DNA of 63,981 nt, filler included, from Sanchytrium tribonematis (taxonomy: Eukaryota), in the NCBI GenBank assembly GCA_018985235.1. It is 6 parts of 6 records of this genome, joined end to end, with 100 filler letters (N's around TTAATTAATTAA, not from the genome) between each part and the next. Parts side by side here need not be neighbours in the genome. Positions count along the whole stretch, not along the records: positions 11,143 to 22,182 come from JADGIG010000271.1; positions 22,283 to 33,272 come from JADGIG010000272.1; positions 33,373 to 44,360 come from JADGIG010000273.1; positions 44,461 to 55,430 come from JADGIG010000274.1; positions 55,531 to 63,981 come from JADGIG010000377.1; 1 more part is not named here. One strand, written 5' to 3'. Of the stretch, positions 13,112 to 62,538 are shown piece by piece. A model generated the notes under the pieces. The model was not told the origin of the DNA. It ran no database searches and saw only the letters and a program-made list of their open reading frames with translations. Position 1 is the stretch's first letter, and each line of letters opens with the position of its first letter. The position numbers and the translations under genes were made by a program.

Positions 13112-16025
13112 CCCAAATCCCTGTGCATTTTCAATGGCTGTTAAAAGCCTTTCTTTCAATTTTTCTGGTGAATCGTATTCTGGTAACAATAACCTGCCAA
13201 AACATGTCAATGCTGTTGGCAATCGATCCGAGTTTCTTCCGTTTTGTTGCACCACAAATGTTAGCGCGCTGAAGCCCTTAAGTGGGATTCTGTCACTTGC
13301 TGTAACAAAAATCATTAACTTCTTTTTCTCTACATCACTAAAGTCGTGCAATATTTTCCAAAACTCACTAAATTAATGTGGAATACTTGATGTAAGAAGA
13401 TTCGGAGGAGTAACCTTCATATTTGGTCCACTTTTCGAGTTGATCGAAATCTAATGCGACAGCTCCACTTAAAATCTTTTCCAACTCAACTCCACGAAAA
13501 TCCTTTAGAATTTGACCGCAAGTGGACCAAAATCCAAAACTGAAGTAGTCGAACTGCTTTTTTATATTAACGTTGAGCTTGTGGTTTATCAACAATTCAA
13601 CATACTCCTCCTTATTTTCATTGTTTACGGATATTGTAGATCCATCATCGGTCAATTCATAAATGTCTTTTTCCCCATACGAATCATAGGTAATGTCAAA
13701 ATTTAGGCAAAATGTATTCTCAACATTACCTTCAAATTGCTTCAATTCAAATAGACCTCTACCTATTTCTGGAAAAGTGGCACAGAAATCTGCGAAATTC
13801 AAATTTTCTCCTGCCAACTTTTTGAAAAGCGTAGTTGGAAAATGCAAGTCAAGTATTATGCCATTATATGAAGCGAGTCCAATGATCATCCCAAAAACCT
13901 CAAATAGTTCAAAGTCTTGGGAGTCATGTCTAATCCAAGCCATTCTTTCTCTTTCTTCATAATAAAATAGACCACGGTCAACGTCCATAATCTCAGAAAC
14001 AAATGTTAAAAAGAATTCTTTTTGAACTCCGCCTTGGTCAAGTCCTTCTTCACCGTCAGTAAATCTAACTCTCAATGGCTTTTTGCAATTTTTCTCGATG
14101 TACGATTTGTAGTTAACTACATCTTCCAGAATATACTCTCTTCTTATTTCAAGTAGACAATAAGGATTGCTGACTTTGGCAAGTAATTTGTCCAGTTCAT
14201 GCGTAGTGATGGACTCTTGCAGAATTTTTGACGTATGAACCACCATGGCATGATTGACACACGCATCTTCATATTCTTTAGACATAATTGAAAGAGATTG
14301 AATTTGCAAAATGCTTGTTTTTGCTATACAGTTGAAAAGATACAAATGCTTCATAATTGCAGATTTGCCTCTCTTATATAACTTGAATTCTCTCTTGAAA
14401 TCGACTATATTGCTTAAAGAATCGTTATAAAATATTTCCAAATCCATTCCTTCTTTGTACTTACATAAAACATATAAATCATGAACAAAAGTAAGTGCTT
14501 TTTGTTCAGCTGATTTTCCTATAGATTCATTAGAACTATTAGAATATTTGTCATCATCACTGATGTCACCCTTATTTTCTAAAGAAATGGAGTAGTTCTT
14601 GAAGATAAAATAATGACATGCATCAATAACTTTTATAAGATGGGATGGATGCTTCATAATATTTTTCATCAAGAGCTGTTTTTGATCAAATCCTAAGTTG
14701 CTATACGCCTTAAAAAGCTTGTAAGTAAGATTTGTTTCTATTCGAATTTCAGGGTATATTGAAGCAATGTAGCAAATCATCCAGGAAAGCGGATGACGGA
14801 CATAACTTCGAGTTTTCAGCTGAGACAGCAAAAATGAGATACTATCAGCTAAAGTCTGTTGTATCATTGGCTGCCCTACCATATCAGTCAAAATATGATA
14901 GCACCGTAGTAATTCTTCATAATTGAACGCATCGGAATTGGGAGATTTACGGAATGAGTGTAGCATAATTAGAGGATCCCCGAACATGTAGTGTACCGTT
15001 TTTGATAATAAAGTCCGCTCTTGAAGTCCCTCCGGATCTATTTTAGATTTGCTAAATTTTCTAGAGGGAAGCTTTTCCTCTTGTTGCGGAACATCATCGT
15101 AGCTGCTAGATCTTTTTGCCGACTGTTTCCGTGCATATAGTCTTTTAAAAACATTTGGTTCATTATTTACAACCATTGTTTTGCTTAGCGTGTCAACCAT
15201 TTTTTGTAAAATAATTGAGTCAAACTTGACGGGCTTATCTGTGGTAAACTTTCTAATGAATTCTTCAACAGATTCTAAGTTTCTGAATGACATAACTTGC
15301 GCATTTGTACCAGAACTCAATGATCTTCTCCTTGGGTAAGGGTCACTGTTGGTATGTACTTGGCTGGATAAATTTTCTAAGGAATGCCCGTTGGTACTTA
15401 ATTGTGGATGAGAATGATAGGATGCGGATGAACCTGTAGAAAGGGAATAATCACTAGATGATAGATCCTGAGTCAACGACCTATCGCTTTTGTATGAGTA
15501 ATAGGAGTTTTGAGAAGAATACTCACTAGAAAATTGTACAGAATCATTATTATCTGAGTCTGGAGAGGGTATGCGAATTGATGTCGGATTTACGTCAGCC
15601 TGATTTTTTGCTTGGTTTATCTTTTCTAAGAGTCCTTCTGAAAAGTGCGACTTGAGCAAATGATCACTAGGGTTTTTCTTGATCTTGCCAAGTACAGACG
15701 GCATTCTCATTGGAGGTGCTTGCGTGTTCAAGCCCAATTCAAATAATGAAGTGTTTAAGCACGATGATAAAATTTGATCGAGTTTAACTGCTGTTGTATC
15801 TGGTAAAAGTAGAGTTGTAGATAATTCTGGAATGTCCGGTATCTTTTGGGGAAGCCTAGGACATACATATTGTTTACCGACGCGTCCTGCTATAGAATGA
15901 GCTAATACTAAGGCTACGTCTTTTGGAACTTCTGGGAAAGATGCATTGGATCTACAAAATTTAATATCACAATTCGTATGACAACCCTCTACAATCTGGT
16001 AGAAATATTTTTTAATCAAATCCAT
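13103..16025 (-). CDS. HECT E3 ubiquitin ligase, UBE3A/E6AP-like with N-terminal AZUL-like Zn motif; 2 exons, 967 aa
   Basis: KYFYQIVEGC..C...C; GEEGLDQGGVQKEFF; DRLPTALTCF..LLLPEY..GFGLI; frame restored by intron 13368-13386. Confidence 0.93.
13368..13386 (-). other. 19-nt spliceosomal intron
   Basis: gtattccacattaatttag; splicing gives YI-N-EFWKILHDF. Confidence 0.92.
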
Positions 16026-16357: not shown

Positions 16358-17477
16358 ATGTTATTCAATTTTGTTGCTAGAGCATGTACCAACACGTATT
16401 TTCAGAGTGATTTGACAATTGCAAATGTCACCAATTGGTTTTCTAACAGTAGCACGGAATATTCGATTGATAGCATCACTCCAGCAATTTCCATAGAATC
16501 AACAAGTGATAGACCACATGGTTCACTGCTATATAACTTTAAAAATGCTATTACTATCAATAGTGCTGATGTTTGGATTACATTTGAAGCCAGAATCAAC
16601 GACAATGGAAATAATACCATTCCAAATTTTGATATTGAGTTTCAATTGAAAAACAATGGCAATCCGGTTTCTGTCGCAGCTTCTACTGTAAATTCTTTAG
16701 GATATAGTAATATAACTTATGGAGAATGGAAGAAATTCTATATCAGCTCTGAGGATCTTGGCAGATGGACCTCAATCAGTGGAATCAAATTTAAGAATAT
16801 CGATGTTTCCATCTTATTGATCAAAAATATTATGATTCAATCTGCTGATTGTGAAAGCGGTGATAAAATATTGGTGCTCAGCGACTTCAGACAATCCAAC
16901 TACATTGCTGCTAAGAAGACGTATATTAACACAGACATCATTCCCGGAACATCATACACAATGGGCCCATCAGGAATCTCTTTTAAAAAAGTGACTGCAG
17001 ATGCAACTGATGCTACCGTCAACTTCAGAATTAATCCGCAGTGCAATTTGAAGTATACTGGAATCAGTTTTATTGGTAAATCTAACTTACATAGCATACA
17101 GCGATGAGTCAACTTCCTCATTCAAAGTTGGGTTTGGTTATGCTCAAAGCATCAACCAATGCTTTTTTGGTAGCACGCTAACTTACTCGTTTCCAGATGA
17201 AGATACAATTACAATCACAAGTATTCCGGACACTTACACCATCAATTTTCCAGAAGATATGGCTGGACAAATTCGAAGCAATATTATGGAATTAGTTTTT
17301 AGACAAAGCACGACAAGCAGTATTCATATCTCTCATGTGGTTTTACACACAAGTCAACTTGCAGTTAAAAATTCACCTGCTAAAAATGTCGTCCCAGTCG
17401 GTTCTTTACCAGGTGCAGCAGGAGAACTTTCCAACATTTGTTTCTTATTAGCTGCTTTGTGTATGATTGTACAATAA
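16358..17477 (+). CDS. Secreted, probably GPI-anchored beta-rich protein of unknown function; 2 exons, 366 aa
   Basis: Short hydrophobic N-terminus MLFNFVARA; hydrophobic C-terminus ICFLLAALCMIVQ; ORFs joined by intron 17076-17094. Confidence 0.7.
17076..17094 (+). other. 19-nt spliceosomal intron
   Basis: gtaaatctaacttacatag; splicing gives SFI-A-YSDES. Confidence 0.85.
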
Positions 17478-17498: not shown

Positions 17499-19473
17499 TT
17501 ATTCGGATTTTTCCTTACTTGGTGAGGTGCGATTGTCAATCTGTTCTTTAGCTTTTTCAACTACCATTTTGAAGACATTTTCGGCCATTTGTTGGACAAC
17601 TCCTACCATTCCCATTTGGATTATAACTAGTGCTACTAATCCAGTAAGACTAGCTAAAATTAAGTAAATTGGATTTCCTAAAATAATCCATAACTCGTTC
17701 CATCCTAAAAGAAGCAAAACGCCATAAACCCACTTGGGAACACGCTCATTTGATAAAATTATTCTGCGCTGTTGCTCGACGTAAAATACTTCCAAATCGG
17801 ACTTCAACGTGGACAAATGTGGCTTTGACAGATTCGGCAATTCAACTTTATAATGACTTGGCAATTTTGTGCTGTTGATCTTTTCTATAGTTTCAGTAAT
17901 ACTTTGCCATGTATTATTGAACTGCATACCGAGCTCTGCTTCGTTTGCATATAATCTTGGAATTCCATTTAAAAGATTCATTTTGTCTTTCATGGTTGAT
18001 TTAAGATATTGAAGAACTCGTGTTTCTGTAAAGTACTCTTTGTTCATCGAAAATGTTTTTGACTTGAGGAACTCTACAATTTCTGATTCGTTCAACTTGT
18101 ATTCAAATGGCTCATCCGATTCTATGTTAATATTAGTTACCCAATGTAGTTTTAAATGATGCTAAAGCCTTTTCATATTTTTCTTCAAATGATTTCAAAA
18201 TATCATCACTATTCAAAATGGTTCTCCAATCCATGTCATAAGAGTGCACCAACAAATCATATTGAATTTCATGGCAACATTGTTTAACTGAAAGGTCAAT
18301 ATTGTCTTTCACAGCTTTACATGGAATTGACTTCATCTTGATCCAAGCTGATTCCCATGATTTCAAAATCGAATTAATACTGCTACACATAGCTTTGTAA
18401 TCAGAAGAATCGCAATTCTTAATGATTGAAACAATCCATTTTTTGGCAGAAACAAAATCTAATATACTTTGATGAATTTCATGATGGGTCTTTTCAAATA
18501 TAGGTGCTGTGATTTTACTTGAGATCCTTTCCGTATGTTTGACCATGACATTGACATATTCAGAAATTTTGCCATCCATTTCACTTATCATAGCAAAAGA
18601 ATCCTCTATTTTTCCAGATTTGACCTCGAATGAATGCTCAGACATCCATTTCTTGATACTCTCTAGACATTGGTCTGCGTGCTTTTCTACCCGGTATTTT
18701 GTGATTAGTTCCATTTGTGTTGGAACATTCAATTCTTGGTTCGAAATAATTAATTTCCAAATTCTGGACATGTACTCGTTCAGTGCGTCTGGATGAACGT
18801 GATTGTTATTCTGAATGGACATTATATTGTTTTTCAATGTTGCAACAGATGCACTAAACGCATCTTTTTGTAGCTTAAAATGTGGGCAAGCATGAATGGT
18901 TAATTCGAAATACTTGGAAAGATCTTCAGCGGTCAAAGTTGACCAAATTTTTATAATGTCTTGTGTCAAAATCTCAAGTAGTTCAGAAACTGGAGTGGTG
19001 TCTGAATAGTCACGAACCACAAATAATAAAGTTTTTTTATGAACTTCCTCTGATTTGCTAATAAAAATCTCATGGTAAATTTCTAGGACCATTCTCATTA
19101 ATCCCATATTTGCCCCATGATAGAGACCTACTGCGTTTTCAAATACATTAAAAAGCAAAACATCAGATACGGATAACGCAAACAGCATTAAACATCTTTC
19201 ATGATGTTGCTGGTCACCGTGTTCTCGTCCATCGCTACCTTCAACGTCACAAACAATTACTTGTCTACTGTCAGAATGATACGAAGATGCAACAATTCCT
19301 CTCGTAGTCTGTTGTCGAGAACTTTGCATAACAGAAAAGTTAAGATTAAATAATTCGTTTAGTAAGGTAGACTTACCGCTACTTTGACTTCCGACAATTG
19401 ACAGAAGTGTATATGGCTTGTTCTTGATCTCAGCATTTTTAAAAACTTGATTCTCGTCAATAAGCTGGGACAT
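17499..19473 (-). CDS. SEY1: SEY1/RHD3 ER-fusion dynamin-like GTPase; 2 exons, 651 aa
   Basis: QLIDENQVF, GSQSSGKSTLLN.LF, RQQTTRGI, DVEGSDGREHG, VPKWVYGVLLLLGWNE, two TM segments; intron 18122-18140. Confidence 0.95.
18122..18140 (-). other. 19-nt spliceosomal intron
   Basis: gtaactaatattaacatag; splicing gives TTL-E-SDEPF. Confidence 0.9.
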
Positions 19474-19543: not shown

Positions 19544-22182
19544 TTAGGTAGACTTGACTTTATATTTAAGCCAGATGTATGATAGCAAAAAGAAGACTCC
19601 AGCAGTAGCCCAAAGTGTTGATATATCTAAAACGTAAGAATTTGGCCTAAATCCAAATCTATCTAATATAAAGTCCGCCGGTACTTTTAGCTTGATATCC
19701 GGATCTTGAATCAGAAGTTGATGCATTTCATTGACCGACATTGCCTCTACTGCATTTCTAAAGAAACTTAGATAGCTGACATATTTGAAAACCGAATCAC
19801 CTAGATAAAAAAAGTCTACGTGTATTAAGAAGCAAGCCACTAAAAAGCATTGATACAAGCATAAGTAGTGAAGTTACCAAAGTGGAAACTGCTAACTCAG
19901 CTATTGCAATTCCTAAAAAGAAACATATGCTTGAACTTGCAATATTGAAAGATATTAGTCCCAAAATAAATTTGAGGTAAATCCAAAGGTCTTTCCTGAG
20001 ACCTACCAGTGGGTACAACACCAAACTGAGCAAAATTGGCGGAACTACTCTTAGCGGTATTACGTCAAACAAGACTTTTGAAATATAGTACATGCTTGGA
20101 TCATAGAACCGATTGCTTCTTTCTTTGATAAATAAAAGTCTTTCAACATTAAGAACGCTCAACGTTGTCAAGCAAGAAAAACCAAAAATGGCGCACAAGA
20201 AAAAGAAACAGCCAAGCCTATTTTGAACTCCTGAAATGTCATTTTCCACTTTAAAATAAACGCATCCCAACAGAATTCCAGCGATTAGGCTGATGAGGTA
20301 ATGTGAAAATAATAAAAGTGGATTTCGATAAAGGTTTTTAAAAGATCTATCACAGAGAATTTTAAGCTGGGTGAGCAAGCTTGGTTTTGCAGAAGTAGTA
20401 AAATGTTGAAAATGAGATGATATGGTTGAGTCGACATCATTCTCGAATTTAAAACCTGTTGTAGCTACAATTTCGGCGGTGATTTCTTTAGACATTATAG
20501 AGTTGTCAAATTGAGCTAATATATCATTAAATTTCTTACTTTTCGGGTTTTCGTCACTTATTATTTCTAAATCTGTGGTCGTTATTAAATCAACCAAATA
20601 GTCTGCAATGTTGTAACCTTTGGGGCAAGTATAGCCTAGATTTTCAAAAAATTGGGCTGCTTTTGAGCGTGGTCCCGAAAAGACGCAAAATCCATCACTC
20701 AGCAATAGAACTTTGTCCAGTTTTCGGAAAATATCGCTTCTTGGCTGATGAATTGTTAAAACAATTGTTCTTTTAAAATCCTTGGCCAACTTTGATAGGC
20801 AAGATATAACATTCATGGCATTATAACTATCCAGACCACTTGTGGGCTCATCTAAAAATAAGATAGAAGGATTTGTAACCAACTCGCACGCAATAGAAAC
20901 TCTCCTTCGTTCTCCTCCAGATATTCCCCTTATACCAGCACCTCCGATTCTGCTATCTGCTATATGCTCAATTCCCAGCTCGTACATTACCTCTTTGACT
21001 CGTCTCAATTTAGTTTCTTTCAGCATATCTCTGGGTAGCCTCAACATCGCACTATAAGTAATAGTTTCCTCCACAGTGAGATAATCCATTAAAAAATCAT
21101 CTTGCTCTACATAGCCAACGATTTCAGCATACGATTCTAAATTCACAGGCTTCCCATCTGCGAATATATAACCATTAACCTCTCCCAGTTTGAATCTATT
21201 TGCTAATATCTCAAGAGTGGTAGTCTTGCCAGCCCCAGAAGGGCCCATTATTGCGCATAATTCTCCTTTTTTGACAGAACCTTTAATTCCTTTTAAAATC
21301 TGCTTCTCTTTGTAAATGTATTCCAAATTACTAAATGCTAAATCGACTCCTTCTGGTATTAAATCCTCGGAACTCAAAGATTCATACCCGCGAAGTCTCT
21401 TTGCTTTGTTTAAACAATACATGAATATTCCCACCATCAAAAATGCCAGAACAACCAAAGGCACTAAGGTAAACCATTTGTTATTCAAATTGGGATCAGC
21501 CCGAACCTCCCATTTGTCGACACATTCCCCAATGGTGCAGTCTAAATCAAATCCAATATCTCCAAACATAGGCCCCATCATCTCCTTTTCTATATGTGGT
21601 TCTGTAAACATGCATTTTTGATCTGTGCATTCTAATGTACCTGGGCCCTTGACATGAGTTTGAAGAAAATCTGTCAAATCTATTAGACCGCCTTTTCCAC
21701 ATAAATCGCGATCTGGTATACACTGACAATTCACGTTTTCGCAAATTATTTTAGAATTTCCCTCTTGATGGCAATTTGAAAGACCGCACCAGAAGCTTTC
21801 CTGTTTACCGTAAAAAAATTCAAAGTGGCAGGCTGTAGACTTGCAAGACCAAACTGCTGTTAAAGGCTCAGGTGCGATTGCAACTAGTCCAGGATTTGTG
21901 ACTTTACAATGCGCAAAGTTCTCACGGACTGGATTTAGGGTCTTATAACATGTTGGCTGTATATATGGGTAAGCACTACATGTATTGTCGTTACTACATA
22001 CCCGACAAGTCAATCCTTCCCACCCCTTATCACAATCCCCTTCCCTTGGTTTTAACGGACTCCCTCCAATTGGATTTGCGCACGTAGGCCCTCCAAATCC
22101 CACTTCACAATCACACTCTCCACTATCTAATAGCGTGGAATTACTGTAGCACACAGTCTCTAAGTCACGCATTATGAGAAAT
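19544..22182 (-). CDS. ADP1: ADP1-like ABCG half-transporter with Cys-rich EGF-like lumenal N-terminus; 2 exons; probably 5'-truncated
   Basis: CDCEVGFGG, CDKGWEG; GPSGAGKTT; ISGGERRRVSIACELV; LDEPTSGLD; TM domain; intron 19801-19819. Confidence 0.9.
19801..19819 (-). other. 19-nt spliceosomal intron
   Basis: gtagactttttttatctag; splicing gives SGLLLNT-R-DSVFKY. Confidence 0.9.
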
Positions 22183-22282
22183 NNNNNNNNNNNNNNNNNN
22201 NNNNNNNNNNNNNNNNNNNNNNNNNNTTAATTAATTAANNNNNNNNNNNNNNNNNNNNNNNNNNNNNNNNNNNNNNNNNNNN
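22183..22282. other. Artificial contig spacer
   Basis: N44-TTAATTAATTAA-N44. Confidence 0.99.
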
Positions 22283-26765: not shown

Positions 26766-29214
26766 ATGTTTTTCCAATTGATCTTTGCTGTATGTCAACC
26801 GACTACAGAATGTAATACAATCCAGGACTATTGTAAAATGGATGAAATGCACTCTAATAGAGCATTAGATACTGTTAATCAAGAAACCATTCGTATTTGC
26901 AATCAGGAATGTGCGCAACAGTATTACGATGCATACAATTGCATGCAGCAGAATGAAATGGCAAATACATGTAAAGATGAATGGAATATGCGATGTTCCA
27001 TTGACCCAAAGCCATTAACAGATACAGCATCCCCATGTATGAATGAATTTGTCAAGAATTTACAAATGAATGTGGCTTTAAAATTCAAGAATGAGCAAGA
27101 ATTGGATACGAATTTAATCAACCCACTCCCTGTTAATCCTAAATTGATGTTTTTATGTACAGATTGCTCCAAACAGTTGATTCTGTATACGCAGCAATAT
27201 GAAACCCACAATCAATCTGCCACCAAATGGTCTTCCTTTATGAAAAACAATGCTTTGACGAGTTGTGGTACTCAATTCCTTGACAACTTCCAGATCTCTA
27301 GTGATTTCACCAATTTTCTCAAGCCACAAACTCAAACATCTCAAAATTTGATTTTGATCATTGGTATCTCCATTTCTGCACTTGTATTGCTATTAATCAT
27401 CTTCTTTGCTTATAGAAGATACATGGGTAAACCCCCATTAGGCGTCGTCGAGCAAGAATTGCATTTTCTCACTTCTATTGATTTTAGATTTGTTTGGACC
27501 ATTTTAGATCCACGCCCCTTTTTTATCCCACTCACTCGTCGCAAAGTTGTCTTATATCTATTATATATTGCTATTGGTATCGTATTATCAGGTGTATTCG
27601 GATATCTCCCAGATGGATTCTATTATTTTAAACAAGTTGCCAATTTCTCAGTTATTGCTGCAATTGTCCAAATCATCATTGATCCACTATTAATCATTGT
27701 CACCATATTCACATGCAAATATGACTCAGTCCACCCTATAGAATCCATTGATCCACGCAGCAGAGACAGTCAAGAAATGCGTGAATTGAACTCAGTCAAT
27801 CAATCTGCTCAATCCAGCAATGCGTCCCTAAATGGCAGTGCCCCATTCATCTCTAGAGGTGATATGCACTCTCAAATCGCAGTAGTCATTTGTACACACA
27901 ATTCTGCAGCTGTTATTGAAGAAACCATCCACGCTGCTTTAAATCACTTTAATCCAGATAATATCTATATTGCAGACAATGGGTTCTCAGAATTACCCAT
28001 GGACCACACCAAACAACTCATCCATGCCATTCATCCTGATATTGTCTATAGATATTACAATATTGGCAATAAAACACTCGCTCAATATTTGACAGTCAGA
28101 TACATCCACAAGACACGTCGATCCACTAGCACCGATAATAGTGGGATGAGAGCCTCTCAAACCTCTTTAGATAGCAGTAGAATGTCACAAAATACAACCA
28201 ATGCCACCCAATCCCCAATTAATTATGTTTTAGTGATTGACGATGATGTGTCACTCCCTTTAAACATCCATTTCCCACTCCATCAATTAAGTGGCAATGT
28301 CAAGGCACTCGCATATCCCATCAGAGGCGTAGATTATGAATTACAACAAGCTAGATTATTCACAAAATGGCAAGATATGGAATACAAATTATGTGATTTT
28401 ATCAGATTATTTCAAGATAAATATTGTAGTATTTTACATCCACATGGTGCTATTTCATTATGGCACAAGGATGTCCTACTTAGAATGTTGCATGACTCAG
28501 ATTCCATCTTTTATGCAGATGATGTGAAAATGGGCAAATGGTTGTTGCAACACGGGTTTAAATTGGGATATGTCAATGATTGCATCGTAGATACGTAGTT
28601 TATATTCATTTAGTTGGTGTCCAGAGACCATTATTGGTGAATTTCCTAATTTTTATTCACAGCGTGTCAGATCATGGGATTTCTCAGAACATATGCTCAC
28701 ATGGACATTTATCAAGTTGGTATTCACGAGTTACTCTAATACAAGTATGAGAGAGACCATTTTATTGAAGATATTCCATTTATATTCACTCTATCCCGTC
28801 GTCATTGATTGGGTGAAATTACCTGCTTTAATCTACATGATTATCGTAAATCCATCCTTTTTTGGAGTTGCATTAAGTGGTGTCGTGAGTTTAAATGCCA
28901 TTGCCATCTTCGTATGGAATTATTGGGCGTGTCGTTACAGACCAGATATTCAAGTCACATTTGTGAGTATTATTACATTTCCACTCTATAAAATATTGAG
29001 TAGTATGATCCGAGTCATTGCCATGTTGAGATGCGCATTGGTGTATTGGCCACGACACTCTACTAAAGATTTTAGACCCAAATTGTTGACAGAAGGAAGA
29101 ATTGGAGATATTGAGAAATATGAACATTTGGGATTAAAAAGAAGAATAACGAATATGAAGAGAGCATTTAGTAAGCGTAAAACAAGCAGACCTGAAGAAG
29201 GTGTATTAAAATAA
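26766..29214 (+). CDS. Processive GT2 glycosyltransferase with Cys-rich N-terminal ectodomain; 2 exons, 809 aa
   Basis: IADNG, VIDDD, HGAISLW, ADD, QRVRSWD (QxxRW variant, in frame only after splicing 28595-28613); several TM segments. Confidence 0.85.
28595..28613 (+). other. 19-nt spliceosomal intron
   Basis: gtagtttatattcatttag; splicing gives IVD-T-WCPET..QRVRSWD. Confidence 0.92.
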
Positions 29215-46288: not shown

Positions 46289-46349
46289 ATTAAATTTCTA
46301 ATTAAATTATGTTAGTGTTGTTAATATTTGCAAGAGTATCACAATGATA

Positions 46350-48112: not shown

Positions 48113-49193
48113 ATGGGTTCTTGTCAAAGTTCTGTTGGACATGAGGGTTATATTTTATCGAATAAAATTGACAAGGAACTCCGAATGGAGGAGAAAAGTA
48201 TCAAAGATAGAAACCCGGTGAAACTGTTATTATTGGGTGCAGGTGAAAGTGGAAAATCGACAATTGTGAAGCAAATGAAAATTATTCATATGGGTGGATT
48301 TTCCAAGAGTGAAAGAGATGGCTACAAATCTCTGATTCATTCAAATATTGTACAAATTGTGAAAAGTGTGAAAAACGCATCAGAATCATTGCACCAAGAA
48401 TTATCGCCTACAAACAAAATATTTGTAGATCGTTTTTTGAAAGAATACATGTCCAATCTTGAGGACAATATTATGATAGAACAAAGTTACTACGAACACT
48501 TAAATGATTTCTGGGACGATAAAGTTGTCAAAGAATTAATTAAGACTGAAAACTATTTTCCTGATAGTTCACAATAGTATTTTGAATTAACACAGTTATA
48601 TGTCTAATCTTAGGAGAATATTTCAACCTGATTACCTTCCAGATGATACTGACATTATCAAGTGTCGCATTAAGTCTATAGGTGTCACTGAGACTAAATT
48701 TGATCTTCCTCCATTACACATTCAATTGTTTGATGCTGGAGGACAGAGAAGTGAAAGAAGAAAATGGATACATTGTTTTGAAACTGTCAATTGTGTCTTA
48801 TTTGTTGCAGCATTGAGTGAATACAATCAAGTTTTATTAGAGGATCCAGAAGTCAGCAGACTTCAAGAAAGTTTAAATTTATTTGACAGCATCATAAATT
48901 CGAGATGGTTTTCAAGAAGTAGTATTATTTTTTTCATGAATAAGTCAGATATCTTCAAAGAAAAACTCAAGGTATTTCTTCTAAAAAAACAATTTCCGGA
49001 TTTTGAATATGGCACTGACTCAGCAAAGGCTGGGAAATATCTTCTTTCCAAATTTGTAGCATTGAATAGGCAAAAGCTTCGAATATATCCTCACTTCACA
49101 AATGCAACAGACACATCACAAATTAAAGTAGTCTTTCTTGCTGTTAAAGACACTCTTTTACAGTCGACTTTAAAGGGAAACGGTATTTTTTAA
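48113..49193 (+). CDS. Second G-protein alpha subunit (paralog); 2 exons, 353 aa
   Basis: [40 protein letters not shown]; intron 48577-48595. Confidence 0.96.
48577..48595 (+). other. 19-nt spliceosomal intron
   Basis: gtattttgaattaacacag; splicing gives DSSQ-Y-YMSNLRRI. Confidence 0.95.
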
Positions 49194-49227
49194 AATCCAA
49201 ATAATAAATATTTATATAGCATAAGCA

Positions 49228-51082
49228 TTAAGGTTCAAAAATAAGATTGACATTCTCTACAATACACTCCACCACTCGACAAATATGCATTAGATCTTCC
49301 TTTTCTACTCGGACGAGACTGGGGCCCACTCTCAAAGCCAAACAAAAGGCACTTAATTTCTTTTTCTCAGTAATTCTACGTTATTATGACATACTTGTAT
49401 AAATTTTGCATTAAAAGCTTGAGAGCACAATAATTTGCATCAGGAAGCTTATTTACACAGTCGTGGATCCCAATAACTCTTCTTCGATTGTCGTCACATT
49501 TGACAGAACCAATAAATTCATGGACCATATAATTAGGTATTAAACCGTCAGGAAGTTCTCTAAAAAATAGCAATATCAGTTCGCAGATGATAGGCATTGT
49601 AATCGCATTGACATCTACAGATGGAGCATGTTTGTTTAATTGGTTTCTGAGAGGTATAATTTTGTCAAGAGACTCATTTGAATTGTAAATGTCTACTCTT
49701 TCAGAATATCTATTTAAGCTATTGATAAGACTTTCTAAAACCCTGGGTGTATTTGAGTCGTCCTTTTCACAAAGAGATTGAAGATCCACGCCAAAATTTC
49801 CAAAAATAAGATCTGATGCATTCTCTGTCATCAAACGACTATCAGACTTAAATGGTTTTGTAGCAACATTCATTTCTTGGACGTGCTCGAGATAAACCTT
49901 TTCATTATTATTGTAAGAGAATCGAATGAAGTCCGCTAGATCTTTTTCGAGATTAAATCTCTGAACCACTTCCAAAAAAGTAGTAGTAAGAAAACCATCT
50001 TCGTCAATCTCCGCTTCGTGAGGAGTAAGACTGTAGCTGTTTTCTCTATGTAATACCATCCTCTCGAAATTTTCATCCAGATCGTGTAAGTCGGAGGGTT
50101 CATTTTCGTAAGAGCCAAGCAGCAGACGTCGTTGGTCATTTTCAGCTTTCATCGACTTCCAATATACACCAAAGGCCCACTTATATCGGTCACTTAATTC
50201 CTTACTAAGTTCAATCATAGAATGTAGCAACTTTGGAAGATGAATTCTATAGTGGTTTTGATGGAATGATATCAATACGGCAATCTGCTTTTGATATTTA
50301 ATTGACTTGTCCCCTGTCTTCACAGAGTACTTAGATTCAAGACCTTGTAGACTTTCCAAAGACGTCTTGCTTCCCAGAATGTTGAAAGCAGATTTTCTTT
50401 TGTTGACGACGGGCTTTGAAAGATCTAAAATAAATTGAACTCTATTTTCAATGCTCTCCTCCCATTTCTGTGTGTAAACATGCAAGTCTTTCTTGAAACC
50501 CTCAAGAATTTTCTCTTGTTCTTTCTTTGACTTTTGCAAATCTTCTAAAGAACTTTTCATTCTCTTTCGACTATTTTCATGTCCATCTACAATTCCCTTA
50601 ATGTCTTGCGACAAAGATTCTAAAGATTGTCCTAAAAGTACTTGGAGATTGCCACTTTCCAGTTGAATCCTCTCCAATACGCTTAGCTTCGAGGTAGTTT
50701 CTAGAATTGCGTCATTGGGTACAACCCTTGCGTCAACGCTCCTCTTGAATTGCGAAAACGCGTTCGAATTGCTCTTTCCTGAGCTTTTCAAAAGCTGTCC
50801 CTTTTTCTTCAGGTAGTCACTAAGTTCTAGAAGTTGAAAAACTTGATACTTGATATATTCAATCATATAATCTGGTCCTTCTTTTAAATCACAGAGCAAA
50901 TTGACTAAATTGTGTTCATCAGAGCTATGAGTTTGGTAAGTTGGTTGAGACTGCCACTTCTCTGAAATTTTATCAGAGGCCCTACTTCCTTCGGGACTAC
51001 TAACCTTAGATATCTCACTTTTAATGTCAGGCTGTCTTAATAATGTAGCATAGCCAAGTTTTGGAATCGATTCTAGATTCAT
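49228..51082 (-). CDS. F-BAR-like coiled coil plus RhoGAP protein (Rgd1-like); 2 exons, 611 aa
   Basis: FGVDLQ, LFFRELPDGLIP, LPDANYCALKLLM; short last exon (..VGPSLVR..NVNLIFEP*) after intron 49376-49394. Confidence 0.85.
49376..49394 (-). other. 19-nt spliceosomal intron
   Basis: gtatgtcataataacgtag; splicing completes the RhoGAP domain. Confidence 0.88.
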
Positions 51083-51252
51083 ATCACTTAAAACAATGGC
51101 CTACAAAATTGATCCGCCAAGTAAAACTAGAAAGATATAGTAAAATCTGAAATAGAAGCTAAATAGTAACAAATTTTTAGAAGATAAACACTTACGAAAT
51201 TGTAGATATTAGAAAAATACGTGAACGATGTTGGCGTCAAAATTTGAAACAC

Positions 51253-52038
51253 ATGTTGAATCTTTTTCGAACGGTAGTATTGGTTAGTTTAGCTAGCTTT
51301 TTATATTACTACTATGGTACAAAAGAATCAGATCTAGAACGTAGAGCTGCAAACAATTTCATTTCACAATGTAGCTTGCCAAATTTAGTAGCTTTGACAG
51401 TATTTAAAGCTGGACCGCACCTTGATGCTTGGTTAGCTGCATTGGCAATTCAAAATGTTAAGATCACGTTCATGTTAGACAGGGCCACTTTATCAAATGT
51501 TGCATTGGTCCAGCGTATTGTTAACGAAGGACATAATGTCGGAATTGATGCTTTCAATGAGCCTTTGACCACTAGTAACATTGTTGCAACTTTGAAAGAA
51601 TTGGGTAATATCGTGGGTCCTACCATTAAAAAAATCCCCCGATTTTACACTTTGAATCAGCCAAATGCAGAGGAACTTGCGGGAGTTGCATTGCAGTCTG
51701 CATTCTATGCGGTTAATGTAAATACAGAGTTTTTGAAGACCGGTAACTTAATTACTCAAGTTGCTGGAATTCAATTGTCTGGAACTCAAACAATTTTAGG
51801 AATGGTGGATAGTGCTGAATCACAGATTGATACAACAGCATTTGCAACCTTTTTGCAAACATTGGTAAACTCCAAAAACAACCTCGTCTCTTTGGCTGAT
51901 TGTACTCAGAAATCTTCTGCATATGACTTATGGTGGAGCACTGGTCAAAGTTCTTCAGCTTCTACTAGCACTGATGGAAATAATGCTAAAGTCAATCAAA
52001 AAAGTAGCAGTGGTATGCTGAAATGGTTTTTATGGTGA
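51253..52038 (+). CDS. Degenerate polysaccharide-deacetylase (CE4/NodB)-like surface protein 1
   Basis: N-terminal anchor; ISQCSLPNLVALT, NVKITFM, VQRIVNEGHNVG, LVSLADC. Confidence 0.7.
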   Translation: MLNLFRTVVLVSLASFLYYYYGTKESDLERRAANNFISQCSLPNLVALTVFKAGPHLDAWLAALAIQNVKITFMLDRATLSNVALVQRIVNEGHNVGIDAFNEPLTTSNIVATLKELGNIVGPTIKKIPRFYTLNQPNAEELAGVALQSAFYAVNVNTEFLKTGNLITQVAGIQLSGTQTILGMVDSAESQIDTTAFATFLQTLVNSKNNLVSLADCTQKSSAYDLWWSTGQSSSASTSTDGNNAKVNQKSSSGMLKWFLW

Positions 52039-52057
52039 GTAAATTTTTTATTTAATT

Positions 52058-52958
52058 TTACAATAAATTAGCCACAATTAAGTACAATAAAAAAGCAGAT
52101 GAGACTTCACCACTACTACCAGAGGGTCCCTGGTTCTGCGGCGCATTGATTGAATTGGTATAAGGAACATCGCCGAGACACTCGCTTAAGGAAACAACAG
52201 AATATTTGTAAGGATCAGATTTTAAAAATTGAATATAAGCCAATATATCAAGCCTTGTAATTAACGTTTGGTCCATATGAGTATGTGCCCAAATGTATTT
52301 TAGTCTATTTCCACCTTGTACGAAAGGATCGATCGTAGTTTTATATGTGCCATATATTTCAGCTGCGGACTGAGTCAAATCTTGCAAGTAAACTTGAGCT
52401 TTAATAGGAACAAAGCCCATGTCCATAGCCCATTTTGCTGTATTTGTTTCGACAGTCCAGTCCGATCCGTATCTAAATAAGTAAAAGCTACTTGAAAAAC
52501 ACGAATTTGGGATATTTGCCTCCCAGGTACACCTTGACAGACTCCGCAAATCCGATCAATTGAGCCTTGAATGTAGACTCGTCCATGTATTTCATATCTG
52601 CTGGATATAGTGGAACTGCTAATCCCACTTCCATACCATCTAAAAGCAACCCATCGATTTGGCCCTTCAAGTCAGGCCGGCTATCTACCGTGACAGGATT
52701 GACGAAGAAGGCACATTTAATTCCTTGAGCAAGACAAGCTTTTCTAAACTCATATGTCTTATTAAATCCCGGTCCATCTGTAAAGACTACACTCATTTTT
52801 GAAATGGTGTTACACTCTCTTCTATAATAATAATTTGTTCCGGCTTGTTTTCTTTGAGGGGATTTTCTAACTAACTCATTTTCTCCACCAAATCCAAACC
52901 CATAGTATAAAACTATTGCTACTATAACAAGGACTGTAGTTCTAAAGATATTCAACAT
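52058..52958 (-). CDS. Degenerate CE4/NodB-like GPI-type protein 2; 2 exons, 293 aa
   Basis: VVFTDGPG, IKCAFFVN, GKYPKFV, VVSLSECLGD, hydrophobic C-terminus; intron 52473-52491. Confidence 0.75.
52473..52491 (-). other. 19-nt spliceosomal intron
   Basis: gtagcttttacttatttag; splicing gives KFVFF-K-YGSDW. Confidence 0.88.
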
Positions 52959-53028
52959 TTACAGTGGCTTGAAATGACCTCTTTTAAAAGTTTTAGAATT
53001 TCATAAGCTTTTATTCCTAAAGAGTCCA

Positions 53029-53981
53029 TTATTGCAGAATGGCCAGCAATAATACCAAGATAAGATTTGCAACCCCAATTTGAACTTGGGAAGCAATGGA
53101 ACCATAATTTGTATTTTTGCTGCTATAGTCTTGGTTCGTACCGTCAATGCTATCACATGTGGTTGGCATGTTAAAAAATCCAGGTGATTTTGATAAGCCC
53201 AAAGGAATTATGTTGGCTAAATTATTATATAATTACTGGATTTTAGGGAGCTTTCTCCTGCTAAACCAACACAATTATTTATCTGAGTCACAGAATATCC
53301 TTTGGCTTCTGCTGATGCAATCGCTTGGGAAACAACCCCGACATCGACTGCATTTGTTTCTGAATCTTCAATGCTAAAAATGTATCCGTTACCATCTTCT
53401 AAAGACTGAGCCATAACATCCACATCTGACAATTTTTGAATGTCACCATTTCCTTTGGTGTTTTGAATAACCACGAAACCCATGTCATTTGCAATTTTTA
53501 CCATTGGAGATATATCAATGAGGCAGTTGCTTTTACTGATATTTGGGATTCTGATATATTTAGGCCATTGCCCAGCAAAGTTCATCGCCACTGAAATTTT
53601 GTCAGCATATTGACCCAGATACGTCGCAAAGTCATTCGCACTCATCGCTGCCAAGTCCTCTGGCCACAGTGGAACTTCAATACCAACAATTTGATTTTGT
53701 GAAAAAGCGTTGGAGATAATTGCTTTGTTTAGCTCATTTAAATTGTTAGGATTCACCATCAGAGTTGCTTTTTTGTTTTTAAGTTGAAAAACCGTCAACA
53801 AATCAGTAGTTTTGATGGAGGGTGACCAAGTCATCATGAATCCAATTTGTTTTTTAGCAATGCATTTGTTAAAGATTTTCAAGGCTTGTTTCTTGATTTT
53901 TGGTGTTTCCACTGAGTTGGGAATGCTAGAAAGATATACCATTATCAATATCAAAGTTAAAGATTTAAAACTATCAAACAT
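53029..53981 (-). CDS. Degenerate CE4/NodB-like GPI-type protein 3; 2 exons, 310 aa
   Basis: KATLMVN, WPKYIRIP, KGYSVTQINNCVG; spliced last exon ends ANLILVLLLAILQ*. Confidence 0.7.
53217..53236 (-). other. 20-nt spliceosomal intron (only non-19-nt case found)
   Basis: gtaattatataataatttag; splicing adds an open last exon with a GPI-like hydrophobic end. Confidence 0.75.
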
Positions 53982-54043
53982 TTTGGCAATGATGGGTAAC
54001 TTTTAAAACACGTAAAATTTATTCGAAAGATTTTTAATAAATT

Positions 54044-54988
54044 TTATAAAAGGTTAGGTGAGATTGGGTGAACAGAAAATGCTTGGTTACTACTGCATAC
54101 AGATTCATGTGAAGTCTTTCCAATATTTGTTTTCTTTTTGCGATAAACTGGCATATCATCCATATCAGACATCTTAGAAGAGGTGATACTGACTATGCTA
54201 TCACCTGATATTCTTTTCATATAATTTGTCTCTTCTATACTTTCTGTAAATGCACTTGGAACATAGCTAGTAGTTGTATAGGCCGTGGAAGCAATACTGA
54301 TAGGATTCTTTTTAGTGTCCGCTGCAGATTTTGGCGTGATCAACACCGTGTCTGCTGGGGATAATGTGCTATCGGACAAGAAATCCGAAGGATCTTCTGA
54401 TAATCTATGTTTAGTTGGAGTGACTGAAAACATAGTATTTGGTTCTGGCGTAGATGGAATTTTCTTTTCTTGATCCAACTCGTAACTTTCAACATTTTTA
54501 ATCTGAAAATGAAGCGGTGAACTTTTAGTTGGACTATTGACAATATCCGGAGACATGATTCTTTCTTCCATGTGTGCATTTGGTGATTTCATCGATGATT
54601 GAAAACTGGTGGATTTGCTGCTGATTGTCATAGCTTCTAAATCATTCTTGGACTTCTTCTTTTTTCTGTAAACATAATAGGCTGATGACACAAGGACAAC
54701 AGCACCACAAGATACACCTATGGTCCAAGTTACGGGACCGGAACCAGATTGCTCTTCGCCACTAGAATTGGAATCTGTAGAGCCAGATGAAGAATTTGTT
54801 TGCGCTGTAGTGTTGGTAACAGTAGCAGTGCTCGGTGTTGTAACAGTAGAGCCTTGGGTTGAAGGGGGAGTAACGGTAGTTGTAGGATTGGTAGATTGAG
54901 CCTGTCCAGTTAACGCTTTGTGAGGATCAAAGTTCATTAAGGCGTCGGATGCAGACTGAGCAAACGCTAGTGCGACCAAAAATGACAT
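54044..54988 (-). CDS. Single-pass Ser/Thr-rich membrane protein (Mid2/Wsc-like topology)
   Basis: Signal peptide, S/T stalk, TM segment, RKKKK stop-transfer, Ser-rich cytosolic tail. Confidence 0.8.
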   Translation of the reverse strand: MSFLVALAFAQSASDALMNFDPHKALTGQAQSTNPTTTVTPPSTQGSTVTTPSTATVTNTTAQTNSSSGSTDSNSSGEEQSGSGPVTWTIGVSCGAVVLVSSAYYVYRKKKKSKNDLEAMTISSKSTSFQSSMKSPNAHMEERIMSPDIVNSPTKSSPLHFQIKNVESYELDQEKKIPSTPEPNTMFSVTPTKHRLSEDPSDFLSDSTLSPADTVLITPKSAADTKKNPISIASTAYTTTSYVPSAFTESIEETNYMKRISGDSIVSITSSKMSDMDDMPVYRKKKTNIGKTSHESVCSSNQAFSVHPISPNLL

Positions 54989-55430
54989 TTCGTTTACGAG
55001 CTGCTCTGTTTCTTTTTAATTAATTGCATCACTTGCCTTGAGGTATTTGTGCCAATCAAAATGATGCAAACATATTTGCAAGATAAACATTATGGTTTGA
55101 AATATAGCGGTTAAAGACTTGTAATATTTCTAATTTTTTTACCAAGTTTTGCAAGTCATTTTTTGCCTGTTTTGGTTTTCGCGAAACTTCAAACTTGTTC
55201 TGCCTCTGATATTTAAACATGCTCAATAATAATCGTTTTAAAGATGAACCGTTGTTACAACATACGAAGCATTGTTTTACTAAGACCATTGTATTTGCAA
55301 GCGGGTCATGTAATTTACAATTTTCAGTTACTGATTAAATTATTAGAGATTCGATTTCTGCAGCGTTTGGACTAAAGATATGACACTCTTAACGTTTGTC
55401 ACACGTTGACAATTTTGCCATTCAACAATG

Positions 55431-55530
55431 NNNNNNNNNNNNNNNNNNNNNNNNNNNNNNNNNNNNNNNNNNNNTTAATTAATTAANNNNNNNNNNNNNN
55501 NNNNNNNNNNNNNNNNNNNNNNNNNNNNNN
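55431..55530. other. Artificial contig spacer
   Basis: N44-TTAATTAATTAA-N44. Confidence 0.99.
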
Positions 55531-58208: not shown

Positions 58209-58280
58209 CTCCGAAACGGGGAATCGAACCCCGGTTTCCTGCGTGACAGGCAGGTGTACTGGCCACTATACTATTTCGGA
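58209..58280 (-). tRNA. tRNA-Asp(GTC), intronless
   Basis: Acceptor stem TCCGAAA/TTTCGGA + G73; anticodon arm CCTGC-CTGTCAC-GCAGG; T-loop GGTTCGATTCC; downstream oligo-T Pol III terminator. Confidence 0.97.
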
Positions 58281-59639: not shown

Positions 59640-62538
59640 TTACTTTGTTTTAGGTTCTAGAATTATAGAACGTTTATACATTTGCTCAATGTCACCGGAG
59701 TATTTTAAATTGTCTAATGAAAAAAATATAAGTTCAGTAATTTCAGGTTGAGGCTTAAAATCGTATCGGTGTTGAAAACGTTGCAATTCTTGAATTATAG
59801 AAGAGATCCTAAAATATTTTGTATAGTTTATAATAGTTTTCTCTTTATCTTTGAAATCTGGATTCCCATCTTTTGAAAATGTAAGGTCAGTCAAAAATAA
59901 TCCCAGGAAGGGAAGAAATGGCGGAATTGCATTTTTCATTTCTTTTCTATATTCTCCAAAATTCTTTTTATGATCTGTGACCTCTTCTAGTACTTCAAAT
60001 GATTGCAGGTGCTTATTTTGAATAATATTCCAAGTCTTTCTAAGTCTATGGATTGTCGAGGAATTGAGAGCTGATAAAATAGACATTAGGCCGTTATAAT
60101 TTTTAAACTCTTGCAATTTTGCCGCGCACTTTATCCAAAACTTTAAAATTGTTGCTCTCTTTTTGACATCTTCTTCTTCAAGTATAGTTTCGGCAACTAG
60201 AGAGGCAAGCTATATTAATATACATTACGTTTGTACTAAATTTTGTCATCGCAGATACTTTCTCATTTTTGTCTTTGGAAAATACATAAGAAATCAAATC
60301 CTCTGGTTTCAATCTCGAAAACATATCAATTTCAATCAATGTGATTTGCTTAGCAACATCGGTGTAGTCTGTTTGTGCAATATTCCCGTACTTGGAAATT
60401 TTGCTTGACTTGTGGCTCTTTGTTGTGGAAGAAGAAGGAACGGATAATTTAATTTGTAAATCGCGTTCTTTTTGCTTCTTTATTACATCAATAATGCGAA
60501 TTGCCATACTAGGCATAGCTGGACGAATAATAAGATTTGAAAAGCTTTCAATTTGGGAGAAATATAACTCGTCTTCTACATAAAAGTATCCTTCCATCCA
60601 GGTTTTTAAAATATTGAAGACTCTGAGTCTAACAGGAATAAGTTTTTTATCAGTCCAAAGTTTGATTTCATCCACTTGTAAATCCGTCGGTTCGCTTAAA
60701 TTGAACCTTTGCTCTAATAACTTTAAAAATATGGTTTGACTTGTAAATAGTCTAAAAGTTTGTAAAAAGGATGTTATATATAACGGGTCAATGGTCATGT
60801 CATGTAGAGTCAATCTTTCGATCAAAGCTTCCAAAGTTCCACCGCTAACTTGTCCATCTAAATTTAAGATTAAATCTTTTGATGAATAATCATAAGTCAG
60901 ATATGCTAGATTTCTGCGAATACTATTTCTGCTTCTTGAAATATTTTTGTTTAATAACCGGGCTGAGTTTTCTGAGGCCCTCAAAGCTAGATTCTCGTGA
61001 TCTTTGTTATATTCGACTCTCGAAGCACTTGAGCGAGTTTTTAAAGATTGATCCGCATTATCGGCTATGTCATTTAAATCTTGAGAAACAGACTTAACTA
61101 AAGGATTTGGAGACTCGGATTCATCTGTTTTAGCAATCACGGGCACATATGTCAAGCTCATAGCTCGTCTCTGCAATACAAGCAAGTCGGAATCTCTTTT
61201 AGGATCGGATATAATTTGGATTTCTTGCTCAAGAATTTGCTGTTCGTAATCTTCTTTCTTATCGATCAAAATCTTGGTAGATGTGACCAAATTTTCACTT
61301 GCTCTCATTAAATTAGAGCTGCATTTTTGCAATAATTGTTGGGAATTTGCCGGGGCGAAAGAGTCTAAAAGGGTACTAGTATTACTGACAAGGTCGTTAA
61401 CTTTTTCGTATAGCACCTCTCGTTTTTCCTTAAAATCATCTACCAGTGCGGTCATTTCCTTATTTCTTATATTGCCAAGTTTTAACTCGTCAATCAAGCT
61501 AAATATCTGTCCCACTTCAAAAACAATATCTTTTGAGATAGAAATGATTTTTTCTTTGTTAGTCTGATCTTGAAACAAAATTGAAATCATTTCAGTCGCT
61601 GTAGTCAAAACATTATTAGAAAAAGAATCCAGCCTTTTTACAAAATCAAAATCACTCATTGGAATCTTATTACTTTCATCGTCTTCAGGCTCCTCTTCTG
61701 CAAAACCTTCCAAGGTGAGTTTATTTTCTTGTGCAGCAGAAACAAAATGTCTCACCGACAGCAAAACCTGTCCGGCTTGATATCTCATCTTTGTAGTAGA
61801 CTTCGGCTGTGGGTATATCCCAGAAGCTACTTTTGCAGCCAAAACTAGTTTAGCTGTTGCACTAAGTAGCTGTGAATGTGTAGTTCTAAGACTTGAGTGC
61901 TGTTTTAACATCAATGAATTTTTTGATAAACAATTAGAGGCGATCAGCATTTCTCTGATTCCCTTGATCACATCTGTTGTGGAGACTAAGAATTTAGATT
62001 TTTCTTCCGTTTTTGCTGCAGAATTCAAGTCTGATATACCTTTGAATATTCTATTAATCAATATATCCCAGGTTGGTTGGATTTTTCCTATTTTTAGGTT
62101 TTCATCGATTTTCTCATCTACGGTGTTTAGGTTTCGTAATTCCTCAAAATCGGTAGAAGAAGCTTTCAGAAGTAACATAGACTGGCGTGGATTCTTTGGA
62201 ATTTCTTCTTTTGAATTAACAGTTTGGTATGTGGATAAATTAAAATAATAACTATTACCATCCTTGGCTATTTTTTGTTTCCACCCAGCGGGTATGTCAT
62301 GAGAAGCTGGCGAGGTTGGCGGTGTATGCTCAATTGCTTTCGTAAAATTGCTAGGAAACCACCCTCTTTTACCTTTGTTAGGGCCGCTGCTTATAACTCC
62401 ATCGTGCCAACCACTCTCATCCTTATTAATTACGTAAATGATATCACCAGCTTCCAAAGATATACAAGTCTCATCCTCGGCTTCATAATCGTAAAGGGCT
62501 TTTACAATATCTACCTCATGATCTTTTTCATTTGACAT
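59640..62538 (-). CDS. CDC25-like Ras GEF with SH3, WW, REM and RasGEF domains; 2 exons, 959 aa
   Basis: ALYDY..GWFPSNF; PAGW..YYFN; GGTLEALIERLT; RLRKTW, PFLGLFLTDL; intron 60210-60228. Confidence 0.93.
60210..60228 (-). other. 19-nt spliceosomal intron
   Basis: gtaatgtatattaatatag; splicing gives KFSTN-LASLVAETIL. Confidence 0.92.

Follow-up and report, generated by a model that had tools for sequence, protein, structure and literature searches.

Introduction

A branch box held at a short, fixed distance from the acceptor has been described in the fungus Yarrowia lipolytica, where a single base separates ACTAAC from the terminal CAG or TAG, so that the branch A lies at −6 and a C at −5, counted from the 3′ end of the intron (PMC2483917; likewise the available portion of PMC13309789). 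For the ciliate Stentor, the accessible text of PMC9505925 gives a putative branch A that is the tenth base of 15-nucleotide (nt) introns or the eleventh base of 16-nt introns, which is −6 either way. Here we analyse 15 introns of 19 or 20 nt, each with an A at −6, in the genome of the sanchytrid fungus Sanchytrium tribonematis. The sample is a single window, by which we mean the whole 64-kb stretch of DNA under study, and both strands were covered. The 3′ geometry of these introns is itself already known, described in Y. lipolytica and inferred in Stentor. What appears to be new is that a fungus outside the microsporidia combines a total length of 19-20 nt with a branch box that is legible and of yeast type.

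Y. lipolytica shares with the window its fungal setting, a box anchored at the acceptor, A at −6, C at −5, one free base, YAG and the lack of a pyrimidine tract. Its introns are long, however, with a median of about 200 nt (from a table in the available part of PMC2483917), and they open with a strong GTGAGT donor, whereas those of the window measure 19-20 nt and keep GTA only. An earlier sequence-only reading of the window had named the ciliates as the parallel and had stated that the tiny introns of Stentor branch at −6. This agrees with PMC9505925, as far as its accessible text goes and for a branch point that is putative there, and the parallel holds to that extent, but the closer fungal analogue, Y. 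lipolytica, had been overlooked. The 15-16 nt introns of Stentor coeruleus and other heterotrichs resemble those of the window in their near-fixed length, their A+T richness and the anchoring of the putative branch A to the 3′ end. The Stentor introns are 4 nt shorter and, in the accessible text of PMC9505925, have no strong consensus in the branch region, whereas the window has a clear UACUAAC-like heptamer and comes from a fungus. The same text reports changes in Stentor at the N-termini of the splicing proteins Cwc25, Yju2 and Isy1.

Other short introns share some of these features. Those of chlorarachniophyte nucleomorphs (Bigelowiella natans) measure 18-21 nt with a narrow spread, have GT-AG ends and are A+T-rich (available portions of PMC6009652, PMC10245619 and PMC2483917), but they occur at about three per gene in a relict endosymbiont nucleus and, in what is accessible of PMC6009652, have no discernible branch A or motif. 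The mikrocytids Mikrocytos mackini and Paramikrocytos canceri are reduced parasites in which intron sequence is conserved and intron length varies very little (PMC10245619, in part); they differ in being rhizarians, with introns of 16-17 nt that are 2-3 nt shorter than the window's. The ACTAACACACAG 3′ motif of Trichomonas vaginalis and Giardia lamblia also fuses box and acceptor at a fixed distance without a pyrimidine tract, but its box stands two bases further from AG, with the branch A at −8, and the introns are few and longer (PMC2483917). Tiny introns of fixed length occur, in addition, in Paramecium, myxobolids and dicyemids (accessible portions of PMC13644364, PMC9505925, PMC10245619 and PMC6009652). 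Such introns have thus been recorded in ciliates, mikrocytids, nucleomorphs and a few animals, and to find them at 19 nt in a fungal nucleus that is free-standing would be an independent addition.

In microsporidia, introns measure about 23 nt or more, are few, and sit for the most part toward the 5′ ends of ribosomal protein genes. Those of Encephalitozoon cuniculi (CTAAYTT) resemble the introns of the window in belonging to the Holomycota, in being short and in carrying a strong branch consensus close to their 3′ ends (PMC2483917 and PMC13644364, in the parts available). The introns of the window differ in measuring 19-20 nt and in lying in many kinds of gene, mostly in the 3′ half. Our literature searches, which covered articles without their supplements, found no description of such introns in non-microsporidian fungi, and the available portion of a survey of fungal intron structure contains no such lengths (PMC8476143). 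Among the papers listed on tiny introns, microsporidia are the only fungi named, and those listed on 19-nt or ultra-short introns deal with nucleomorphs, ciliates, humans and myxozoans.

Fifteen introns of 19-20 nt restore the reading frames of window genes

We scanned the window without reference to any motif for GT..AG segments of 15-30 nt that have at least 40 open codons on either side. Among lengths not divisible by three, candidates peak at 19 nt, with 37 compared to 6-26 at the other such lengths; 21 of these 37 are scan output that lies outside the set examined case by case. Fourteen introns of 19 nt and one of 20 nt, located between 13368 and 60228, join long open reading frames (ORFs). 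These are the 15 tiny introns that had been proposed over this range from the sequence, and their complete recovery by a scan blind to the motif supports the claim that they are real. Removal restores the reading frame in every case (15/15), the unspliced frame meets a stop within 0-22 codons at all of them, and no intron has a length divisible by three. Phases 0, 1 and 2 are represented by 4, 5 and 6 introns, respectively.

The shared sequence pattern of these introns exceeds chance expectation. GTA-N8-TNAY-NN-AG occurs 18 times in the window versus 3.51 +/- 1.96 times in shuffled sequence, and none of 100 shuffles reaches 18. The 18 matches consist of the 14 introns of 19 nt and four others, a number that is about what chance would give. 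In a test against decoys, TNAY occupies −8 to −5 in 15/15 introns versus 4 of 112 other 19-mers of the form GTA-N14-AG (Fisher p = 3.3e-16). The earlier observation of T at −8, A at −6 and a pyrimidine at −5 is confirmed in the window. A separate survey of junctions for other or longer introns (GT or GC to AG, 10-120 nt) returned 65 clusters which, taken collectively, are mostly boundaries of neighbouring genes.

A yeast-like branch box lies at a fixed distance from the acceptor

All 15 introns start with GTA and end with AG, and thus have the GT and AG ends of U2-type introns. The base at −3 is a pyrimidine in 14; the exception is the isocitrate dehydrogenase (IDH) intron at 42155-42173, which ends in AAG. 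Every one of the 15 has T at −8, A at −6 and a pyrimidine (C or T) at −5, and the resulting TNAY fits the yUnAy branch consensus, as had been noted. Conservation continues upstream with T at −11 (12/15), A at −10 (13/15) and C or T at −9 (13/15), and the conserved block is the heptamer TAYTNAY at −11 to −5. Judged by its letters, this heptamer resembles the yeast UACUAAC box with two relaxed positions, A−6 standing where the bulged branch A would be expected. A−6 is also the sole internal A common to all 15 introns. The earlier statement that there is no strong conservation beyond +3 consequently stands near the 5′ end, where the fourth base varies (A in 5 introns, G in 3, T in 7) and positions 5-8 show no more than T-richness, but fails at the branch block.

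A 19-nt intron is laid out as GTA, five T-rich spacer bases, TAYTNAY, one free base and YAG (AAG once), and nearly every base of it is signal. Across the set, the T-rich spacer between GTA and the heptamer measures 5-6 nt, the A+T content of the introns is 79%, and the flanking exon bases have no consensus. The box ends at −5, two bases before AG, in all 15 introns, so that the stretch from −5 to −2 cannot accommodate a pyrimidine tract. This register is kept by the 20-nt intron at 53217-53236, whose motif aligns with the others only when counted from the 3′ end. Its extra base lies 5′ of the motif, as the sequence-only reading had it, and the same is true of the introns of two relatives that decode to 20 and probably 22 nt (see below).

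In terms of known intron classes, the introns of the window belong by size to the ultrashort group of heterotrich ciliates, mikrocytids and chlorarachniophyte nucleomorphs, whose lengths stay under about 25 nt and vary by 1-3 nt. In all 15, the distance from the branch box to the terminal AG is constant and there is no pyrimidine tract, which is the 3′-anchored type of branch site. They lack the strong extended 5′ splice-site consensus of intron-poor genomes of the Yarrowia, Trichomonas or Giardia type, GTA alone being conserved. U12-type (minor) introns have an RTATCCTT donor and a TCCTTAAC branch box; we considered this class and rejected it, as neither element is found in any of the 15 sequences.

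Protein profiles and homologs run through most of the joins

At nine of the 15 junctions, a protein profile or a set of homologs continues across the join (HECT, profilin, chitin synthase, both G-alpha, RasGEF, Cation_ATPase_C, IDH and ABC). All introns described here are 19 nt long unless stated otherwise. In a gene for an AZUL+HECT E3 ligase, the phase 2 intron at 13368-13386 (−) separates positions 3-218 of the Pfam HECT profile from positions 219-305, and the ORF proteins of three relatives stop at this site too. The gene for a SERCA-type P-type ATPase is interrupted in phase 0 at 37210-37228 (−), with positions 1-91 of Cation_ATPase_C upstream and 78-175 downstream; the spliced protein aligns with fungal SERCAs, and two relatives' proteins, P0122 and P0123, end at the site. 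In the profilin gene (40185-40203, −, phase 0), the profile is divided into positions 1-82 and 84-127. A chitin synthase with a DEK_C tail (45301-45319, +, phase 0) has Chitin_synth_2 positions 36-332 upstream and 333-527 downstream of its intron, and a Cdc25-like SH3+RasGEF protein (60210-60228, −, phase 0) has RasGEF positions 1-55 and 50-180.

Two adjoining G-protein alpha subunit genes both contain a phase 2 intron at the same profile position: 46948-46966 (−), with G-alpha profile positions 5-141 upstream and 144-332 downstream, and 48577-48595 (+), with 4-135 and 144-332. These paralogs (46353-47499, −, and 48092-49190, +) are divergently oriented and about 600 bp apart. Their introns are identical at 15/19 bases, compared to 23/60 and 36/60 in the flanking exons. 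For subunit 1 of NAD-isocitrate dehydrogenase (42155-42173, +, phase 1), homologs align without a gap across ...TLIQGD|GVGPE..., which validates the AAG acceptor; the unusual end that had been read for this intron is thus exact. The spliced ABC-2 type transporter (19801-19819, −, phase 1) aligns with full-length homologs through the join, and a relative's protein, P0337 (67% identity), ends 7 residues beyond the site.

The remaining six junctions include one in the gene for a Sey1/RHD3 GTPase (18122-18140, −, phase 1), where the support is at the level of domain architecture, with RHD3_GTPase upstream and positions 338-416 of 419 of Sey1_3HB downstream. At the other five, the evidence is the joining of ORFs. 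Three of them are the only solution of 18-21 nt at their site: 17076-17094 (+, phase 1), which joins 250 and 126 codons of a protein of unknown family; 49376-49394 (−, phase 2), which joins 568 and 48 codons of a RhoGAP; and the 20-nt intron at 53217-53236 (−, phase 1), which joins 255 and 61 codons of another protein of unknown family. The last two are 28595-28613 (+, phase 2), joining 632 and 199 codons of a family-2 glycosyltransferase, and 52473-52491 (−, phase 2), joining 155 and 137 codons of a protein of unknown family. Exon 2 of each of these five genes, and of the ABC gene, matches no Pfam family at E up to 10, and PDB matches of the glycosyltransferase and ABC exons are at chance level only.

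Contigs from a DNA sequencing run (X1) cover 44461-55430 fully and have no joint across any intron, indicating that the elements are present in DNA. Six introns lie in this part, and none has a variant inside it among the X1 differences listed; the run is probably not independent of the assembly. Among the differences listed between the X1 contigs and the window, about nine are single bases spread along 44461-52099, and one base of the window, at 51213 inside the ORF 51181-52035 (+), is absent from the contigs. These differences could be strain or allele variation or assembly error.

Intron position within genes has a marked trend. Most of the introns (11/15) fall past the midpoint of the coding sequence, at relative positions of 0.53-0.92, the value for chitin synthase being unreliable because the upstream part of that gene is masked. 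In intron-poor fungi the usual bias is toward the 5′ end, opposite to that of the window's introns.

ORF-only proteins of relatives end in translated introns

In the available text of the sanchytrid genome paper, proteins are described as TransDecoder ORFs predicted on contigs, and introns and splicing go unmentioned, the word 'intron' appearing just in a reference title (PMC8371127). Translations of window ORFs are present in EukProt as P0001 (IDH), P0121 (SERCA) and P0241 (HECT), and each is affected by its intron. P0001 reads through the intron and has a false N-terminus in which the conserved IDH N-terminus is missing; P0121 lacks the last 130 SERCA residues and P0241 the last 87 residues of the HECT domain, and both end in translated intron. 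The closest named relative is the sanchytrid Amoeboradix gromovi, with 87% identity for IDH (P0002), 67% for SERCA (P0123) and 51% for HECT (P0244). Proteins of further relatives in ENA are 61-85% identical to those of the window, and the next named matches after A. gromovi are early-diverging fungi at 62-66%, as expected for a sanchytrid-like zoosporic fungus. A metagenome scan with IDH exon 2 returned 80 loci, every one at 46% identity or less, and so yielded no DNA of a close relative.

The ORF-only proteins of A. gromovi (P0123 and P0244) and of other relatives (P0122, P0242, P0243 and P0337) end at the HECT, SERCA and ABC sites of the window. As these proteins stop just inside the intron, their read-through tails are translated intron, and we decoded them by enumerating the codons compatible with each tail while imposing a GT start and an AG end. 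Among the HECT tails, P0244 decodes to 19 nt only, with T−8, A−6 and C−5. P0243 decodes to 19 nt with T−8, A−6, T−5 and an AAG end; the implied exon 2 fits that of the window at 13/20 residues, versus 1/20 for a 21-nt alternative. P0242 decodes to 20 nt with A−6 and Y−5, with 13/18 residues compatible, and its 22-nt alternative forces a stop codon. For SERCA, 22 nt is favoured in P0122 (A−6, Y−5), with 26 nt also possible, and P0123 is ambiguous between 19 nt with the motif kept and 22 nt with no A at −6. The ABC tail of P0337 gives either 19 nt (T−11, A−10 and T−5, the base at −6 not being fixed by the decoding) or 23 nt. Four of the six tails thus decode to introns of 19-22 nt with A−6 and C or T at −5, and two are ambiguous. 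In the unambiguous decodings, A−6 and Y−5 persist when counted from the 3′ end while the spacer varies in sequence and length, as functional constraint would predict, and this supports 3′ anchoring beyond the single 20-nt intron of the window.

The IDH intron has a different distribution. It is absent in P0002 of A. gromovi and in P0003 of another relative, whose ORFs are continuous through the site, indicating that intron content differs between close species. The intron at 42155-42173 is either a recent gain in the lineage of the window or was lost in these relatives.

A−6 as the probable branch point

We consider it probable that these elements are spliceosomal introns of the ordinary GT-AG (U2-type) kind, reduced in size to 19-20 nt, and that the invariant A−6 is their likely branch point. 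In the mechanism we propose, the GUAGUA box of U2 small nuclear RNA (snRNA) would pair with TAYTNAY and bulge out A−6, as expected from the general conservation of U2. A−6 would then attack G1 and form a lariat ring of 14 nt, or of 15 nt in the 20-nt intron. The AG located four bases past A−6 would be the first reachable AG, and this would explain why A is tolerated at −3 in the AAG intron. With no space for a pyrimidine tract and a donor reduced to GTA, recognition would rest on the branch box and the near-fixed length. The intron side fits GUAGUA pairing around a bulged A, with TAYTNAY and T−8, A−6 and Y−5 in 15/15, and the U2 side is the general consensus. Altered U2 pairing, which the sequence-only reading had inferred, is not what the branch block suggests; TAYTNAY looks canonical, and its UACUAAC-like form points to ordinary pairing instead. 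The altered U1 and U6 pairing and the reduced need for U2AF that the same reading proposed are conjectural.

Several points weigh against this interpretation. A−10 is also frequent (13/15) and might be the branch point of the majority. The evidence at five of the 15 junctions is the joining of ORFs, and at two of these the frame is also restored by a motif-less 19-nt GT-AG segment, 28572-28590 at the 28595 junction and 52520-52538 at the 52473 junction; because such a rival solution exists and homology support is absent there, the choice of the motif-bearing segment is partly circular. The ABC alignment carries a 2-residue gap right at the junction 19801-19819. Decoding from the tails of relatives is indirect, and P0123, P0337 and P0122 each allow alternative lengths. 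The U2 partner of the proposed pairing is taken from the general conservation of U2 and not from the organism's own U2, and both intron and branch calls were made from DNA and protein sequence. Lastly, the sample consists of 15 introns from one 64-kb window, and longer introns, or ones that lack the motif, may exist elsewhere in the genome or even within the window itself.

The frequency of A−10 is also the starting point for a competing account, in which the introns are spliceosomal but branch at A−10 or at any available A, and T−8/A−6/Y−5 is an extended 3′ splice-site element that is recognised by a protein, or by U2 with branching taking place elsewhere. Further A residues abound, since the introns are 79% A+T, and no discernible branch A is reported for nucleomorph introns of equal length in the available text of PMC6009652. 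We nevertheless regard branching elsewhere as unlikely: A−6 alone occurs in all 15 introns while two have T at −10, the TAYTNAY context puts A−6 at the bulged-A place of UACUAAC, and the decoded introns of relatives retain A−6 and Y−5 while other positions vary. The relatives bear equally on the idea that the motif reflects recent common origin, such as copying of one source sequence, rather than geometric constraint. The IDH intron is missing in two relatives, meaning that content varies between close species, and the G-alpha paralogs are far more alike in their introns than in the exons on either side (15/19 against 23/60 and 36/60). The HECT, SERCA and ABC introns of relatives, however, have diverged in spacer and in length (19, 20 and 22 nt) with A−6 and Y−5 kept, which is the signature of constraint and makes recent common origin a very unlikely source of the shared motif.

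Removal without a spliceosome, by an endonuclease and ligase as for HAC1/XBP1 mRNA, or bypass of the segments during translation, would answer the steric objections to lariats in such short introns that have been raised for nucleomorphs (PMC6009652, in part). Given that all 15 segments combine GT-AG ends with a UACUAAC-like box, which are spliceosomal hallmarks, and that organisms with introns of 15-17 nt retain spliceosomes (accessible portions of PMC9505925 and PMC10245619), we hold either route to be highly improbable. The chance that the segments are not introns at all but assembly or sequencing artefacts, or frameshifts in disabled pseudogenes, seems to us close to negligible. The assembly of the window does differ from the X1 contigs at some single bases and by one 1-nt indel, but the 15 interruptions are of one identical design, their removal restores conserved protein profiles in nine cases, the X1 DNA contigs contain the segments, and the interruptions recur at identical codons in the independently assembled sequences of relatives.

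Reach and consequences

If shrunken U2-type introns that branch at A−6 are indeed what the window contains, a long-standing question with two sides is at stake: how the active site of a spliceosome accommodates a 5′ splice site and a branch point separated by just 13 bases, and by what features an intron is defined if the donor is GTA alone. The legible branch box, which nucleomorph introns lack, and the existence of tractable fungal relatives would make the question of the minimal intron easier to test in this system.

We lean, with some reserve, toward a wider claim, namely that the sanchytrids and their uncultured relatives, as a whole lineage of zoosporic fungi, have compressed their introns to an all-signal cassette of 19-22 nt (GUA, a spacer of 5-8 nt, UAYUNAY, a free base and YAG). 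In such a lineage, the branch A would be locked at −6, the introns would be the shortest in the fungal kingdom and of independent tiny-intron origin, and gain or loss would be ongoing between species. The published proteomes are plain ORF calls, so that, if the pattern is lineage-wide, each intron-bearing gene would be represented by a truncated or false-tailed protein. Conclusions on gene content and phylogenomics drawn from such ORF-only proteomes may need checking, given that the A. gromovi proteins end alike.

Other features of the window

The window has a G+C content of 35% and, in Pfam profile searches, contains fungal-type eukaryotic genes that are tightly packed along it. Genes with introns include those for the AZUL+HECT ligase, Sey1/RHD3 GTPase, ABC-2 transporter, SERCA-type ATPase, profilin and NAD-IDH. 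The window also contains the genes for the chitin synthase with its DEK_C tail, the two G-alpha subunits, the RhoGAP and the Cdc25-like SH3-RasGEF, as well as TRM5, OBG and an Sdh cytochrome subunit. An Rfam search of the window found no snRNA, and its sole match is a tRNA gene at 58209-58280 (−).

The four matches to the 19-nt pattern that were not counted among the introns are of several kinds. One, at 9314-9332, lies in the transposon region described below, and those at 40053 and 51815 are antisense. The fourth, at 54082-54100 (−), has sense orientation and falls close to the 3′ end of the ORF 54047-55015, 18 codons before its stop; splicing would give a product of 305+15 codons, compared to 323 unspliced. 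It could be a sixteenth intron that alters the C-terminus or a tolerated decoy, and the evidence favours neither.

The part of the window from 1 to 11000 has few genes and contains decayed transposon ORFs, among them the integrase ORF of a retroelement (1451-2230) and a DDE fragment that is piggyBac-like (9463-9693). A further match to the motif, at 8283-8302, falls in the same region. Ten 44-nt blocks of N occur in pairs at 11043-11142, 22183-22282, 33273-33372, 44361-44460 and 55431-55530; the upstream portion of the chitin synthase gene lies under one such pair. The pairs are spaced about 11.1 kb apart and have the appearance of masking rather than of biology.

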